In this document: in pieces, positions 46,840-51,822 of the stretch | Layout: each line of letters starts with the position of its first letter | How positions within the stretch are numbered: position 1 is the first letter of the stretch | Assembly: GCA_910584635.1 (NCBI GenBank) | Contig: CAJUBA010000003.1 | Coordinates: forward strand, 10,855-74,854 | DNA length: 64,000 bases | Source of the DNA: an uncultured Christensenella sp. | Lineage (GTDB): Bacteria > Bacillota > Clostridia > Christensenellales > UBA3700 | Reading direction: 5' to 3' | Position numbers and translations under genes: made by a program | Notes under the pieces: generated by a model | What the model was told of the DNA's origin: nothing | Seen by the model: the letters and a program-made list of their open reading frames with translations, nothing else | Database searches by the model: none

Positions 46840-47703
46840 TTATTCAACTTCGTTTGGAAAGTATTTTGCGCAAAGAGATAGCCATTCTTCCTCGTCAATA
46901 GTATATTTCTGCTCCGTCAAATATTCATAATCCTCAACGTTAAGTCCGTCGAATTGACTTTGTACAACTTCATAACAATCCTTTACGATTTGAGCGTCTC
47001 TGGAAATATACCCCTCTCCTGCTTTTGAAGATATATATACATGAGCGTATTCATTTACCGGTTCATAATCAAAATAAACGAATTGCTTTTTATTGTTGCC
47101 GTATCTATAACCTACTCTGCCGTCTTCCCAAATAACAAGCATTACGAAATTATAATCATCTTTAGACTTAAAATCCAAATATACTACTCCCGCGTAAGCG
47201 CAATCGTCTTCCGTCGCCGGAGTATATGTATTTATAGTCGTTAAAGTGCCGGAACTCTTAAACTCCATATAGGTCTTCCACCAACTGTCAATAAGTACCG
47301 ACGAATTGTAAATAGTATCGGCGTTGTGATTGTTTACCATTCCGTCGCCTACTACGATAGCCATAGAAAGCGCCTGATCGTACATCTCTTGACGAGCGCT
47401 TTCTACGTCTTCAATATCGCTCTTAACCGCGCTGTCTTTCAATACGATTTCTTTGATTTTTTCAACGTAGTTTTTAGAATCGTAATCTGCCGCTAACTTT
47501 GTAAGATTATTGACAGCCTCTGCCGATTGATTGGCTTTGAAATTATCGGTGTTTAATCCGTTGTCTTTCATTACCGTGATAATCTTTTCCCTAAAAGCGT
47601 CGAATTCCTCTGCTGCAGTAGGTTTTCCGCAACCGGCAAACGAACATACGCCGATTACTGCGCAAAGAACAACTGCAATAACGAAAAATAGTTTCTTTTT
47701 CAT
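46840..47703 (-). CDS. Lipoprotein of unknown function
   Basis: MKKKLFFVIAVVLCAVIGVCSFAGC (signal peptide plus lipobox). Start set at the ATG at 47703. Confidence 0.7.
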   Translation of the reverse strand: MKKKLFFVIAVVLCAVIGVCSFAGCGKPTAAEEFDAFREKIITVMKDNGLNTDNFKANQSAEAVNNLTKLAADYDSKNYVEKIKEIVLKDSAVKSDIEDVESARQEMYDQALSMAIVVGDGMVNNHNADTIYNSSVLIDSWWKTYMEFKSSGTLTTINTYTPATEDDCAYAGVVYLDFKSKDDYNFVMLVIWEDGRVGYRYGNNKKQFVYFDYEPVNEYAHVYISSKAGEGYISRDAQIVKDCYEVVQSQFDGLNVEDYEYLTEQKYTIDEEEWLSLCAKYFPNEVE

Positions 47704-48144: not shown

Positions 48145-49914
48145 TTATACAAAAATATGAGCCGTAATATCACGCCATTGATTGCGCCGTAACATACCTT
48201 TACGTTCTTTACGATATGCTCTTGCTTCATCAAATTCTACCGTAATAGTACATATCTCTCGGTAGTTATCTACCTGTTCTTTCTGATGCGGCAACAAGTT
48301 CAAATACCATGCAAACTCATCTTGTGTATAAGGTATAATACGGAATATTGCCTGTTCCAAAAATTGTCTATCTAATTTCTGTTGCGAAAAATCAACTTGC
48401 GTAGTAAGCAATTCACTTAACTGTCCAAAATCCATTTTGCCGCTTTGATCGTTTGAGTTCTGATTCTCATATTGCAAAATAGATTTTTCTATTGCTTCAA
48501 TTTCAACATTTACTTTTTGCCTATGTACTTGAAATTCTTCCTTGCTGATTTCGCCCTCCATTCGCATATTGGTTAAGTTGTCTAATTTCTTCTTTGCCTT
48601 ATCTAACTTTGAAAGCAACTCTTTACGTCTATCCAACTTTTGCTCTCTCTCATTGACATAGCAACTATTATATATATGGTATGCTTCGATAATTGCTTCT
48701 CTGTTATCACCCCACAAGGAACTAAAAATCTTCCGTGCCAATAATTCAAATTTCCAATCACATATCTCACTTAAATCGCAATATCCCTCTGATGCCACCC
48801 CCGAATCATCGCGTAAACGTTTTGAGCCATTGTTCAACTGATTATAGCACTTGTACCCATAAATAATTTCGCCGTTCAAATTAACTCGCCATTTATTCTT
48901 TCTCATTGCAGAGCCACAACGACACTTTAATTTATGCACCCATACATCTTCACTACTGTGATAGCCTGTTACATTACTACCAAAACGTCTATGAACCTCT
49001 GCGTGCTTTGATTCCCTGATCTCTTTACACTTCTCCCAAAGTTCTTCGGAAATAATAGGCTCAAAATCACCCTTGATATAAAGATGTGTACTTTCATCTC
49101 TGTTTATGATAGATTTTTGATCCAAGAAGTTATTACGGCAAGATTTTAGATAACATTTGTACCCTTTATAAGTTGCATTATGTAAAATGCGAGATATTTT
49201 AGTACATTCCCAACGAACAAGTCCCGAACCGTCTTTTCTCTGTCTTTGTACAAGTTCGCTAACTATCTTTTTGAAACCTAATCCTTGTGCATAAAGATTA
49301 TATATCAATCGCACCGTTTCCGCTTGTTCCTCATTTATAACGTAAGTGTCTCCAACTCTATCATAGCCGAGAATATTTCCGTTTCCATACAGCACACCTT
49401 TATCTCGGCTTATTTTTTGTCCTGCTCTCACACGCTCGGAAGTTTTACGGCTTTCCTCTTGTGCCAAAGTTGCCATAATTGTTAAACGCAATTCCCCGTC
49501 GTTGTCCATAGTCCAAATATTATCTTCAACAAAATAGACTTCAATTCCGTAATTCTTCAGCTCACGGGTAGTGATCAACGTGTCAACGGTGTTTCGCGCA
49601 AATCGGCAGACTTCGCGTGTAACAATTAAATCAAACTTTCGCTCTTTGGCATCGGCAAGCATTTCCAAAAACGCAGGTCTTTTCTTTGCTTGCGTACCGG
49701 TAATACCCTCATCAATATATTTCCGCAAAACCGTCCAATTAGAATGATACTTCGTTTGATCGTCATACCATTGCAACTGATTTTGCAACGCAGACAACTG
49801 CGCTTCATGTTCAGTGGAAACACGCCCGTAATATACAATTTTACGCGGTCTGTTCCTGTCTAAAACATTTACATTTGTAGGCATCACCATTCGATTTGTT
49901 CCGTAAAAATCCAT
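48145..49914 (-). CDS. Large serine recombinase (integrase)
   Basis: Resolvase catalytic domain (IVYYGRVSTEHEAQ..LIVTREVCRFARN), recombinase domain (..LGYDRVGDTYVINEEQAETVRLIY..), zinc ribbon (KCRCGSAM..YKCYN) and a C-terminal coiled coil. Confidence 0.92.
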   Translation of the reverse strand: MDFYGTNRMVMPTNVNVLDRNRPRKIVYYGRVSTEHEAQLSALQNQLQWYDDQTKYHSNWTVLRKYIDEGITGTQAKKRPAFLEMLADAKERKFDLIVTREVCRFARNTVDTLITTRELKNYGIEVYFVEDNIWTMDNDGELRLTIMATLAQEESRKTSERVRAGQKISRDKGVLYGNGNILGYDRVGDTYVINEEQAETVRLIYNLYAQGLGFKKIVSELVQRQRKDGSGLVRWECTKISRILHNATYKGYKCYLKSCRNNFLDQKSIINRDESTHLYIKGDFEPIISEELWEKCKEIRESKHAEVHRRFGSNVTGYHSSEDVWVHKLKCRCGSAMRKNKWRVNLNGEIIYGYKCYNQLNNGSKRLRDDSGVASEGYCDLSEICDWKFELLARKIFSSLWGDNREAIIEAYHIYNSCYVNEREQKLDRRKELLSKLDKAKKKLDNLTNMRMEGEISKEEFQVHRQKVNVEIEAIEKSILQYENQNSNDQSGKMDFGQLSELLTTQVDFSQQKLDRQFLEQAIFRIIPYTQDEFAWYLNLLPHQKEQVDNYREICTITVEFDEARAYRKERKGMLRRNQWRDITAHIFV

Positions 49915-49924
49915 AATATTCTCC

Positions 49925-50095
49925 TTATGCCGCTTGTTTATTTCGGCTTAATTTAGTATTACTTTTTTGACTTCGTATATATCTGTCCTTGCTTTTTAGA
50001 ACACGCTCGTATGTCCCCAAATTCAACTGCCCTTTATGGTACATTGCTTCTAAAAGCAAATAGCCAATATACTTACTATCCAATATCTTCTTCAC
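49925..50095 (-). CDS. 56-aa basic protein upstream of the recombinase (possible directionality/accessory factor)
   Basis: GTG at 50095 behind GAGAGGGG. Translates to VKKILDSKYIGYLLLEAMYHKGQLNLGTYERVLKSKDRYIRSQKSNTKLSRNKQAA. The track's longer version starts on a TTG inside repeat copy 1. Confidence 0.45.
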   Translation of the reverse strand: MKKILDSKYIGYLLLEAMYHKGQLNLGTYERVLKSKDRYIRSQKSNTKLSRNKQAA

Positions 50096-50108: not shown

Positions 50109-50183
50109 AAAAAAATAGAGAGGGTTTGAATTGCTTTTTCGCAAACCAAACCCTCTCTGTTGCCCAACGGATTAAATGATTTT
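50109..50183 (-). repeat. Leader/terminator module, copy 1
   Basis: Minus sense: AAAATCATTTAATCCGTTGGGCAAC, then hairpin AGAGAGGGTTTG..CAAACCCTCTCT, then ATTTTTTTG. It is directly followed by the RBS and GTG of the 56-aa gene. Confidence 0.7.
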
Positions 50184-50228
50184 ACTTTCTTGCTTTTAAT
50201 GATAATTTACATTACCACCTCTACACTT

Positions 50229-50309
50229 AAAAATAAGAAAAGGATTTGAAATGCTTTGTGCAAATCAAACCCTCTCTGTTACCCAACGGATTAAATGATT
50301 TCTTATTTA
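50229..50309 (-). repeat. Leader/terminator module, copy 2
   Basis: Minus sense: TAAATAAGAAATCATTTAATCCGTTGGGTAAC, then hairpin AGAGAGGGTTTGA..TCAAATCCTTTTCT (keeps pairing through G-U), then TATTTTT. It starts 4 nt after the fic stop. Confidence 0.65.
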
Positions 50310-50313
50310 GTTG

Positions 50314-51222
50314 TTACATCTCTAAATCAGAGCCGCCACTGCTTCCCCCACCGCCGTCATCGTCAGTTTCACTCTGTGATAAACCTCCGCCTGCGTATAT
50401 AGACAGCCATAGTTTCATACTTGAAAGCTCGCTTTCAGCAAGCAGTTTTGCCATACCTTCTGTCTTGCTTTCAGGGCGCGTACTGTATTTTTCTTTGTCC
50501 CTATAAGAGCTTATTGCGGCATAGTACCTATCTCTTTCTTCATAACGAATATCGACAGGTAAAAGTCCCAACGAAATCATTTCATAGATTAAAAGCAATC
50601 TGCCCGTTCTTCCGTTACCGTCTATAAACGGGTGTATGTTCTCAAACTCTATATGATGCTTTGCAAGGTTATGGAACAAGTCAACCCAATTAAACTGTCC
50701 TTTTTCCGCAAGTTCGGCGTGATGCCTACAATCCACCTGCAATTCTTCTGAATACGCTTTCATCTTTTCAGGCACTTGCGTAGGCGGACAAGGTGTGTAC
50801 ACTATACGCGACAGACTTCCCACATAGTTTTGTATCTTTCTGTATTTACCCGCTTCGTCATCGCCACGCAATACAAAGCTGTGAATTTTCTTTATAAAGT
50901 CCTCTGTTATCGGCTTTTTCTCTTTAAGCGATTCATACAGAAAATCAAACGCTTGCTTGTACCCAATAATATCTTCGCTTTCGCGCAGAGAGTGCGCACC
51001 TGTTACAATTCCCTTTTCGATAAGCAACTTCGTTTCGTCAAACGTAAATGTATTGCCCTCTATGGCGTTTGAATTGTGCGTTGCGCTGATTGAAAACTCA
51101 TTATTGAAATATTTAAGTTCACTCGCCGACAGCGGACGTACCTTTTTCATAAGAGCATAGCACTCGTCTATCTCATTTATGATGTCTATGTACTTTTGCT
51201 GTTCTTCCATTTTTTTAGACAT
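50314..51222 (-). CDS. Fic family protein (AMPylase-type Fido domain) with an intramolecular inhibitory motif
   Basis: Active-site HPFIDGNGRTGRLL. N-terminal SNAIEGN matches the (S/T)xxxE(G/N) inhibitory helix of class II Fic proteins. Gly/Asp/Ser-rich tail ending DLEM. Confidence 0.9.
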   Translation of the reverse strand: MSKKMEEQQKYIDIINEIDECYALMKKVRPLSASELKYFNNEFSISATHNSNAIEGNTFTFDETKLLIEKGIVTGAHSLRESEDIIGYKQAFDFLYESLKEKKPITEDFIKKIHSFVLRGDDEAGKYRKIQNYVGSLSRIVYTPCPPTQVPEKMKAYSEELQVDCRHHAELAEKGQFNWVDLFHNLAKHHIEFENIHPFIDGNGRTGRLLLIYEMISLGLLPVDIRYEERDRYYAAISSYRDKEKYSTRPESKTEGMAKLLAESELSSMKLWLSIYAGGGLSQSETDDDGGGGSSGGSDLEM

Positions 51223-51245
51223 AGCCCTGCTCTCCTTTGCTTTAT

Positions 51246-51274
51246 ATTATACTCATTTTGCACTGAATAGTCAA
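51246..51274 (-). promoter_or_regulatory. Consensus promoter TTGACT-17-TATAAT dedicated to fic
   Basis: On the minus strand, TTGACT (51274-51269), 17 nt, TATAAT (51251-51246), then AAGGAGAG and the ATG at 51222. Confidence 0.7.
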
Positions 51275-51276
51275 GA

Positions 51277-51690
51277 CTAATAAGCACGCACAAAACTCTT
51301 TTTAACAAGCCGAAAGCCTTTTCTGAAAATAATCGGCAGAGTTTCGACATTTAGCTCTCCGTCTTTCAACGATATTACTTTCACGCCGTTCTCCGTAAGA
51401 AAATTAACTTCGTGCGTTATCTCTATCGGGGAATTGCCAAGCACATCAAGTTCAGGAACAAGCAATACCTCAAATTCACGGTACTTTGCCTGCAACCTTA
51501 AATTGCTGTATGTAAGCGCGTCCATTTTACCGCTTTCCAATATCGTACGCATCGCCGATAGCCCATTTGCTTTTGTATATTCGGTCAATACTTCGCTTTG
51601 GCTTTGCAATTCCGCACGATCCCCTGCTACCGAACGACAATATAATATTGCCTTCTTCGCTGTCCCTTTACTTACCGCTTGATTGTTCAT
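51277..51690 (-). CDS. 137-aa resolvase-catalytic-domain-like protein, probably catalytically degenerate, no DNA-binding domain
   Basis: AILYCRSVAGDRAELQSQ..EVLLVPELDVLGN..GVKVISL follows the serine-recombinase N-domain layout, but the YxRxS serine register is shifted (YCRSV) and the DRLGR arginines are absent. Start is at the ATG at 51690 behind AGGAGG. Confidence 0.55.
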   Translation of the reverse strand: MNNQAVSKGTAKKAILYCRSVAGDRAELQSQSEVLTEYTKANGLSAMRTILESGKMDALTYSNLRLQAKYREFEVLLVPELDVLGNSPIEITHEVNFLTENGVKVISLKDGELNVETLPIIFRKGFRLVKKSFVRAY

Positions 51691-51705
51691 ATACGCTGAC
51701 CTCCT

Positions 51706-51785
51706 ATAAAATAAAAGAGGGTTTGATTGCTTTTGCAAATCAAACCCTCTCTGTTACCCAACGGATTAAATGATTTCCTATTTAA
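51706..51785 (-). repeat. Leader/terminator module, copy 3 (between a promoter and the resolvase-like gene)
   Basis: Minus sense: TAAATAGGAAATCATTTAATCCGTTGGGTAAC, then hairpin AGAGGGTTTGATTTGC-aaaa-GCAATCAAACCCTCT, then TTTATTTT, then AGGAGG and ATG. Confidence 0.7.
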
Positions 51786-51793
51786 CTGCAATC

Positions 51794-51822
51794 ATTATAA
51801 CATTTTTATTCTGGTTTGTAAA
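51794..51822 (-). promoter_or_regulatory. Promoter TTTACA-17-TATAAT immediately upstream of module copy 3
   Basis: On the minus strand, TTTACA (51822-51817), 17 nt, TATAAT (51799-51794). Confidence 0.6.

Follow-up and report, generated by a model that had tools for sequence, protein, structure and literature searches.

In the sugar operons of Bacillus and Escherichia coli that are governed by BglG, SacY or LicT, the 5′ leader or the space between genes carries a short conserved RNA element, the ribonucleic antiterminator (RAT), that overlaps the 5′ arm of a terminator; the antiterminator hairpin of these systems is too weak unaided, and the element is repeated before several units under one regulator. 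Phage lambda carries short RNA signals after its early promoters (the nut sites, with boxA and boxB), and its PR′–tR′ unit (6S) yields a short RNA unless antitermination occurs. Type III toxin–antitoxin systems (ToxIN and CptIN) combine a promoter, a conserved non-coding RNA, a terminator and a protein gene, often on mobile elements and beside defence genes. In Gram-positive conjugative elements, terminators gate element genes and must be overcome for element function, as described for the T1 insulator terminator and canT of Tn916 (PMC11658703) and for conAn of pLS20 (PMC8191782). The canT RNA, ~452 nucleotides (nt) long, processive and cis-acting, lies apart from its terminators and can override any terminator (PMC11658703). 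Here we analyze a module in which a short conserved leader is fused to a terminator hairpin and which occurs three times at the recombinase end of a mobile element in an uncultured Christensenella sp.; the element lies in a 64,000-nt stretch of contig CAJUBA010000003.1, referred to in full as the window.

On balance, we favor the reading that each copy is a cis-acting leader–terminator attenuator, the conserved part of which (the platform) is read by a trans-acting factor, possibly the product of the small resolvase-like gene behind one of the copies (the pseudo-resolvase). Among the explanations considered, the attenuator is the best supported by the sequence comparisons, with conditional read-through and the factor being the parts that we infer. 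As a matter of layout, the comparison establishes that a promoter, the platform and a sense-strand RNA terminator stand in a fixed order and orientation and form an obligatory part of the predicted transcription path.

A conserved block fused to a terminator hairpin

All features of the window for which coordinates are given below are on the minus strand. Three copies of a leader followed by a hairpin had been proposed in the initial annotation, and we recovered these at 51785-51706 (copy 3), 50309-50229 (copy 2) and 50190-50109 (copy 1), with covariance-model scores of 101.4, 102.2 and 97.4 bits, respectively, against a chance expectation of none. Exact matches to the 24-mer AAATCATTTAATCCGTTGGGYAAC number three in the window (51776-51753, 50301-50278 and 50182-50159), and 100 shuffles gave no match, even at three mismatches, while a covariance-model search found no fourth copy in the 64 kb. 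Every copy leads into a long hairpin and then a U-tract (UUUUAUUUU, UUAUUUUU and AUUUUUUU), and the whole modules fold on the minus strand with energies of −28.0, −22.5 and −28.3 kcal/mol (z = −5.1, −3.7 and −4.7). In copy 3, the leader TTAAATAGG and a 43-nt core (51777-51735) are followed by a terminator hairpin that folding places at ~51752-51714, with the U-tract running to 51706. A simple terminator scan did not list the hairpins of the window, perhaps because their bulges or long stems fall outside its rule. Reading of the window sequence gave nothing convincing in the way of an antisense promoter or open reading frame (ORF) on the plus strand.

A wider search, as suggested in the initial annotation, gave a total of 36 distinct copies from metagenome-assembled genomes (MAGs) of gut Clostridia and from metagenomes, drawn from sequence-pattern scans and from contigs that encode homologs of the 137-aa pseudo-resolvase down to 55% identity, all of them sense-oriented and directly 5′ of a ribosome-binding site (RBS) and start codon. 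Scanning one genome per species with a 20-mer yielded 11 true loci and 1 chance match, the carriers being Christensenella, Christensenellaceae, Lachnospiraceae and other Clostridia MAGs, and a degenerate pattern applied to metagenome contigs returned 10 further true loci and 2 chance matches. There was no match to the motif in viral contigs or in plasmid and phage collections. Scanning Rfam 15 at E values up to 10 gave no family match: the best matches were to microRNA and small nucleolar RNA models at 14-22 bits, compared with gathering scores of 47-94 (E = 0.6-9), and reflect chance hairpin similarity.

The 36 copies were aligned with the covariance model under a hand-given structure; because the compared sequences are related, the cell counts given here do not represent independent events. 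The invariant part had been put at 24 nt, which proved too short, as conservation extends over ~43-51 nt, beginning around T(T/G)AATAG and taking in the entire 5′ hairpin arm (GAAATCATTTAATCCGTTGGGTAACAGAGAGGGTTTGATTTGC). Within this block the platform GAAATCATTTAATCCGTTGGGTAACAKAGAGGGTTTGATTTGC is almost invariant, the T(T/G)AATAG ahead of it is looser, and the 3′ arm and loop beyond it drift. The stem comprises 13-17 pairs on a GAGGG/CCCUC base with the U-tract directly after it, which are the sequence features of an intrinsic (Rho-independent) terminator. It is paired in 91.6% of cells, and almost every change falls on the 3′ side and replaces G-C by a G·U pair; one G-C to A-U double change was found, in locus L046 (columns 43/73).

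Folded apart from the rest of the module, the hairpin has a mean energy of −19.7 kcal/mol in sense versus −14.3 kcal/mol in antisense, and it is more stable in sense in 35 of the 36 copies (G·U pairs, 67 versus 2). In folds of copy 2, G·U pairs do join the diverged 3′ arm (UCAAAUCCUUUUC) to the 5′ arm, as first noted, and the selection on a minus-sense RNA hairpin that had been argued from this single copy holds across the whole set. By these comparisons, the hairpin is under selection as sense-strand RNA.

For 25 distinct promoter–leader–gene units, the mean pairwise identity of the 43-nt core was 0.88 (calculated without gaps and hence an underestimate), compared with 0.76 at codon positions 1 and 2 and 0.50 at position 3 of the downstream gene, and with 0.42 in the promoter region. 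The platform is thus constrained more strongly than the protein encoded downstream. A leader peptide was considered and rejected, as indels in loop length break any reading frame. Separately, we observed an ACAGAG/ACATAG dimorphism in the core (column 37 of alignment A4; window positions 51751, 50276 and 50157) that matches between the class A and class B copies (defined below) of one element in 10 of 11 elements, while the 3′ arms of these copies differ. This concordance suggests short gene conversion or co-adaptation to a common reader; the exception is L007, a near-identical relative of the window element.

Copy classes and transcription of the downstream genes

The copies fall into two classes. 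Class A (21 of 36 copies) has a near-consensus sigma-70 promoter (at least 10 of 12 positions) ending 14-17 nt before AAATCA, which would start the transcript ~10 nt before the core, and has its start codon ~15-20 nt past the U-tract. All but two of these copies (19 of 21) precede the pseudo-resolvase gene; the class A copy of L039 is followed by a 58-aa ORF and then a serine integrase, and that of L036 by no clear gene. Class B (15 of 36 copies) has no promoter and begins a few bases past the stop codon of fic or of the pseudo-resolvase gene. Most class B copies precede genes of 48, 56, 71, 89 or 93 aa with a tyrosine or serine integrase behind them, and the 71-aa gene in the xis position belongs to the excisionase-type helix–turn–helix family HTH_17. 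In neither class is the gap from U-tract to start codon long enough to hold a promoter, and so the downstream genes can be transcribed only through the terminator. This is the main argument for an attenuator function of the module, as opposed to termination at the end of an operon.

The window contains both classes. Upstream of copy 3 (class A) lies the promoter TTTACA-17-TATAAT with a TG motif (51794..51822; 11/12 match), which ends ~17 nt before AAATCA, and downstream of it lie the RBS AGGAGG (51705-51700) and the ATG, at 51690, of the 137-aa pseudo-resolvase gene (51277..51690; Pfam Resolvase N-domain only). Between the class A and class B copies is a cargo gene, fic (50314..51222; 302 aa, Fic/DOC family), with a separate promoter of its own, TTGACT-17-TATAAT (51246..51274; 11/12 match). 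Copy 2 (class B, no promoter) begins 5 nt past the fic stop at 50314, and copy 1 (class B) follows in tandem after 38 nt, its U-tract adjoining the RBS GAGAGGGG and the GTG start, at 50095, of a 56-aa gene (49925..50095) that occupies the position of a recombination directionality factor or xis and has no family match. This gene in turn adjoins a large serine recombinase of 589 aa (48145..49914; Resolvase and Recombinase domains), the last gene of the element. The promoter and AGGAGG-ATG on either side of copy 3, and the tandem placement of copies 2 and 1 between fic and the 56-aa gene preceding the integrase, agree with the initial annotation, and the attenuator layout that it recognized is conserved, as a sequence layout, in the 36 distinct copies from other assemblies.

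Good terminators in such positions might act without a regulator. Each copy could be a constitutive insulator or a leaky terminator that stops or damps the transcription coming from the SNF2 operon, from the strong class A promoter and from fic and holds the integrase and pseudo-resolvase at a low, fixed level, with the conserved block serving some other RNA-level role (a 5′ stabilizer, a processing site or an element setting terminator efficiency). The hairpin and U-tract do look like good terminators, the attenuator reading for its part names only a candidate regulator, and insulating terminators close to integrative and conjugative element (ICE) ends are documented for Tn916 (PMC11658703). 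However, a plain terminator would not call for 43 nt of sequence kept more invariant than the coding region, and the frozen 5′ arm, set against a drifting 3′ arm, points to a second constraint on the former, as though it had a second job. We therefore regard constitutive insulation as unlikely.

The class A promoters bear on another possibility, already raised in the initial annotation, that each copy is a small RNA gene. An abundant terminated RNA of ~85-90 nt could act in trans by way of its single-stranded conserved 5′ segment or bind the pseudo-resolvase as a ribonucleoprotein, with the terminator setting the ratio of RNA to protein as it does in type III toxin–antitoxin loci. This would fit the near-consensus promoter followed by a terminator within ~100 nt in 21 of 36 copies, the constant co-inheritance of RNA and protein, and the presence of the core in metatranscriptome assemblies. 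Yet 15 of 36 copies have no promoter, no complementary target of at least 13 nt exists in the 64-kb window besides the copies themselves, tandem repeats are lacking, and the protein does not belong to the ToxN/AbiQ type. The proposal thus suits class A and fails for class B, and we judge it less likely than attenuation and, in its own right, improbable. As to the metatranscriptome signal, a 43-nt unitig identical to 51735-51777 occurs at depth 13-18 in two mouse-gut assemblies, which shows that the core is common to several expressed or contaminating loci there and has no bearing on ends. The sole non-self complement of the leader in the window is a 12-mer, CAACGGATTAAA (47552-47563, minus strand), in a 293-aa gene beside the integrase, where ~0.3 such matches are expected by chance.

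If the module is an attenuator, its ~43-51-nt platform would run into, and include, the 5′ half of the intrinsic terminator, and the pseudo-resolvase (after copy 3) and the xis-like gene and integrase (after copies 2 and 1) would be expressed only by read-through. The level of read-through would be set by a trans-acting factor that recognizes the invariant platform and may either stabilize or block an alternative hairpin, AAAUCA:UGAUUU plus AAUCC:GGGUU, with either sign of regulation possible. This alternative hairpin, with a UUU bulge and a 15-nt loop, is plausible as an antiterminator from the sequence and predicted folds, and it would tie up 11 nt of the 5′ arm of the terminator. It is the minimum free energy structure in five of six variants when the 3′ arm is omitted, those positions of the core that vary map to its predicted loop and bulge, and the sole G-to-A change in the GGG run affects the G that would pair with U. 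The only local option upstream is a mini-hairpin of 4 bp with a 3-nt loop, for which covariation is non-discriminating.

The same region would have to serve as the aptamer (a ~35-nt platform plus the 5′ arm) if the module were a very small riboswitch. A promoter–aptamer–terminator layout and high sequence conservation would be expected of such an element, but no stable conserved helix or pseudoknot precedes the terminator, the downstream recombinases and xis genes suggest no metabolite, and Rfam offers no match, which makes a riboswitch highly improbable.

The pseudo-resolvase and its cassette

The pseudo-resolvases form a tight family of 126-137 aa that comprises at least 178 clusters when grouped at 90% identity. 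In alignments it corresponds to the catalytic domain of the large serine integrases, with TP901-1 integrase the best match, and a Foldseek search with an AlphaFold2 model (mean predicted local distance difference test score of 79) also had the TP901-1 integrase catalytic domain as its best match. Where active enzymes have YxRVS, the window protein has YCRS; the column aligned to the nucleophilic Ser of TP901-1 integrase holds A, V or M, and the neighboring Ser of YCRS is itself lost in CCRA and FCCA members. The model ends after a short helix (120-126), with no E-helix, helix–turn–helix or DNA-binding domain. The hallmarks of an active serine recombinase (a conserved nucleophile, the Ser of YxRVS(T), together with an E-helix and a domain for DNA binding) are thus missing from the family. 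From its sequence and predicted structure it is a stand-alone serine-recombinase catalytic domain of ~130 aa without the conserved nucleophile, hence the name pseudo-resolvase. It had no match among PADLOC models or above cut-off in NCBIfam, and a profile search for distant pseudo-resolvases returned only the same tight family and no more divergent leaders. Two longer calls are N-terminal over-extensions of this gene: a 153-aa ORF with a TTG start in the window (51277-51738), which reads through the leader, and a 164-aa call in L056 (6001-6495; protein P0068), which reads through leader and terminator.

All pseudo-resolvase homologs examined (55-100% identity, ~20 contexts) have the leader directly upstream, and among the 22 loci found from the DNA pattern alone, 19 have the pseudo-resolvase gene, 2 are too short to judge and 1 (L039) is without it. 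Its constant inheritance together with the leader makes the pseudo-resolvase the obvious candidate for the factor, in which case copy 3 would be an autoregulatory leader, and copies 2 and 1 would be its outputs onto excision and integration. That it is the factor that reads the platform is nevertheless doubtful in our estimate, and a host-encoded factor or another one encoded by the element is equally possible.

The homology block common to all contexts runs from the promoter to the pseudo-resolvase stop codon (~520 bp). Placing the module at the recombinase end of a mobile element, as the initial annotation did, is right for the window and too narrow in general. Besides the fic plus xis/int arrangement at the end of elements with a 1,937-aa methylase/SNF2 protein, to which the window belongs, the cassette was found with Wadjet JetABCD (four loci), CBASS (with SAVED, SMODS, Cap2 and JAB), AbiEii, a Cap2-linker/HATPase and PLD pair, an RNase III/radical-SAM pair and a C5-methylase/Vsr block; it thus also precedes Wadjet, CBASS, AbiE and restriction-like loci.

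Several of these contexts have features of their own. In the Wadjet cassettes (L040:5399-5545, L052:6399-6544 and L056:6495-6643), a conserved spacer separates the pseudo-resolvase stop from jetA. It contains a TTGATT-N17-TATAAT promoter and, immediately upstream of that, an inverted repeat, TTATGTCC-N8-GGACAATAA, which looks like an operator. A CBASS locus (L049:5381-5520) and a Cap2-linker/PLD locus (L020:4390-4523) have the same downstream promoter region (GGGTTGACTTTTGTGCTCGAA.GATTTATAAT) before different cargo. Between galactose and fumarase genes, L043:4264-8643 is a compact unit with the order 141-aa gene, leader, pseudo-resolvase, leader, 48-aa gene, 490-aa serine recombinase, sigma-70 region-4 protein and 192-aa gene, and could represent a minimal integrative element organized around the module.

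Rearranged forms were also observed. In the MAG locus L002 (1276-2673), fic is followed by a leader and a truncated pseudo-resolvase gene (the last 42 codons only, with a new ATG), and the same order is present in a contig of the RNA-labelled run X12, matching window positions 51415/50238. The repeats are therefore sites of rearrangement, which raises the question of whether the 43-bp block is a DNA-level site, that is, an operator, recombination site or cassette boundary that overlaps the terminator, is read as duplex DNA and has copies that promote cargo exchange. Apart from the motif at the junctions of these two rearrangements, such a site would account for the terminal inverted repeat AAATCA...TGATTT, which spans 40 bp, and for copies that flank variable cargo. 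Rearrangement between identical repeats of 45-90 nt, however, needs only homologous recombination, and dyad symmetry past the 6-mer is poor on direct reading. Moreover, every copy has one and the same orientation to the gene behind it, the motif is found with tyrosine integrases, serine integrases or no integrase, defence loci hold one copy, and the pseudo-resolvase has no DNA-binding domain. We consider a DNA-level role quite unlikely, less probable than either the insulator or the small RNA.

The attenuator reading itself has to be weighed against a number of observations. Folding gives the alternative hairpin little stability (−6 to −10 kcal/mol, z = 0 to −1.5), and although pairing is kept in 98.2% of its cells, double compensatory changes are absent; both strands are near-invariant, so that shuffling controls do not discriminate. 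Its 5′ strand is A/C-rich, such that almost any transition stays wobble-compatible, and changes there were not counted as support. With regard to the factor, the pseudo-resolvase has no known RNA- or DNA-binding module in its sequence or predicted model, and the 10-kb locus L039 carries promoter, leader, 58-aa ORF and serine integrase with no pseudo-resolvase. The RNA-labelled runs consist of low-depth contigs, some of which carry the promoter and are clearly DNA. Finally, the defence loci have a single module copy and their defence operon has its own promoter in the intergenic region, so the leader there can control only the pseudo-resolvase itself.

The most far-reaching version of the attenuator, which we consider improbable as a whole, is that leader RNA and pseudo-resolvase form a dedicated RNA–protein switch: the protein would have lost catalysis and DNA binding and would read the 43-nt RNA platform, feeding back on its own gene and on ICE excision and integration, in a cassette that Wadjet, CBASS, AbiE and restriction-like systems have recruited. 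Were it true that the pseudo-resolvase reads the platform, this would be a new function for the serine-recombinase catalytic fold.

For the expression of excision and integration genes in the ICEs of gut Clostridia, the module offers a concrete, testable control point. Directly 5′ of several defence systems, the cassette may be a portable regulatory unit for mobile cargo. On the sequence comparisons, the module appears to be of the leader/terminator attenuator kind and is absent from Rfam, for which it is a candidate new family; the literature searched contained no earlier description of the motif, or of a pseudo-resolvase as a regulator. The link that it makes between an attenuator-like leader, a dead-recombinase gene, ICE excision genes and defence loci is unusual.

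Comparison with known systems

In its gene order, the class of cassette described here resembles type III toxin–antitoxin systems, but it has one unit per terminator in place of tandem 34-36-nt repeats, and a serine-recombinase catalytic fold in place of ToxN/AbiQ, which sets it outside that group. Folding did not give the two tandem hexaloop hairpins, the second overlapping the terminator, that characterize ANTAR targets. The strong promoter that leads directly into a terminator recalls lambda PR′–tR′; in contrast to lambda, there is no boxB-like hairpin upstream of the terminator and the class B copies are not promoter-proximal, and no N/Q-like or NusG-paralogue gene was seen.

Processive antiterminator RNAs (put, EAR, canT and conAn2) are structured, ~60-450 nt long and separate from and upstream of their terminators. 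Here, the conserved part ahead of the stem spans no more than 35 nt, forms no stable helix and is joined to every terminator. The difference is clearest for canT, as the conserved part of the present module, at most 51 nt in all, is both fused to and repeated at each terminator.

The likeness to the RAT/BglG systems lies in an element that overlaps the 5′ arm of the terminator and in repeated copies, and would take in the weak alternative hairpin if this acts as an antiterminator. To our knowledge, the sequence of the module does not resemble the RAT consensus, and no CAT/PRD antiterminator protein is present among the neighbors in the window or at ~25 related loci. The likeness is thus a functional analogy only, and the context also differs: mobile-element recombination and defence here, as opposed to sugar use.

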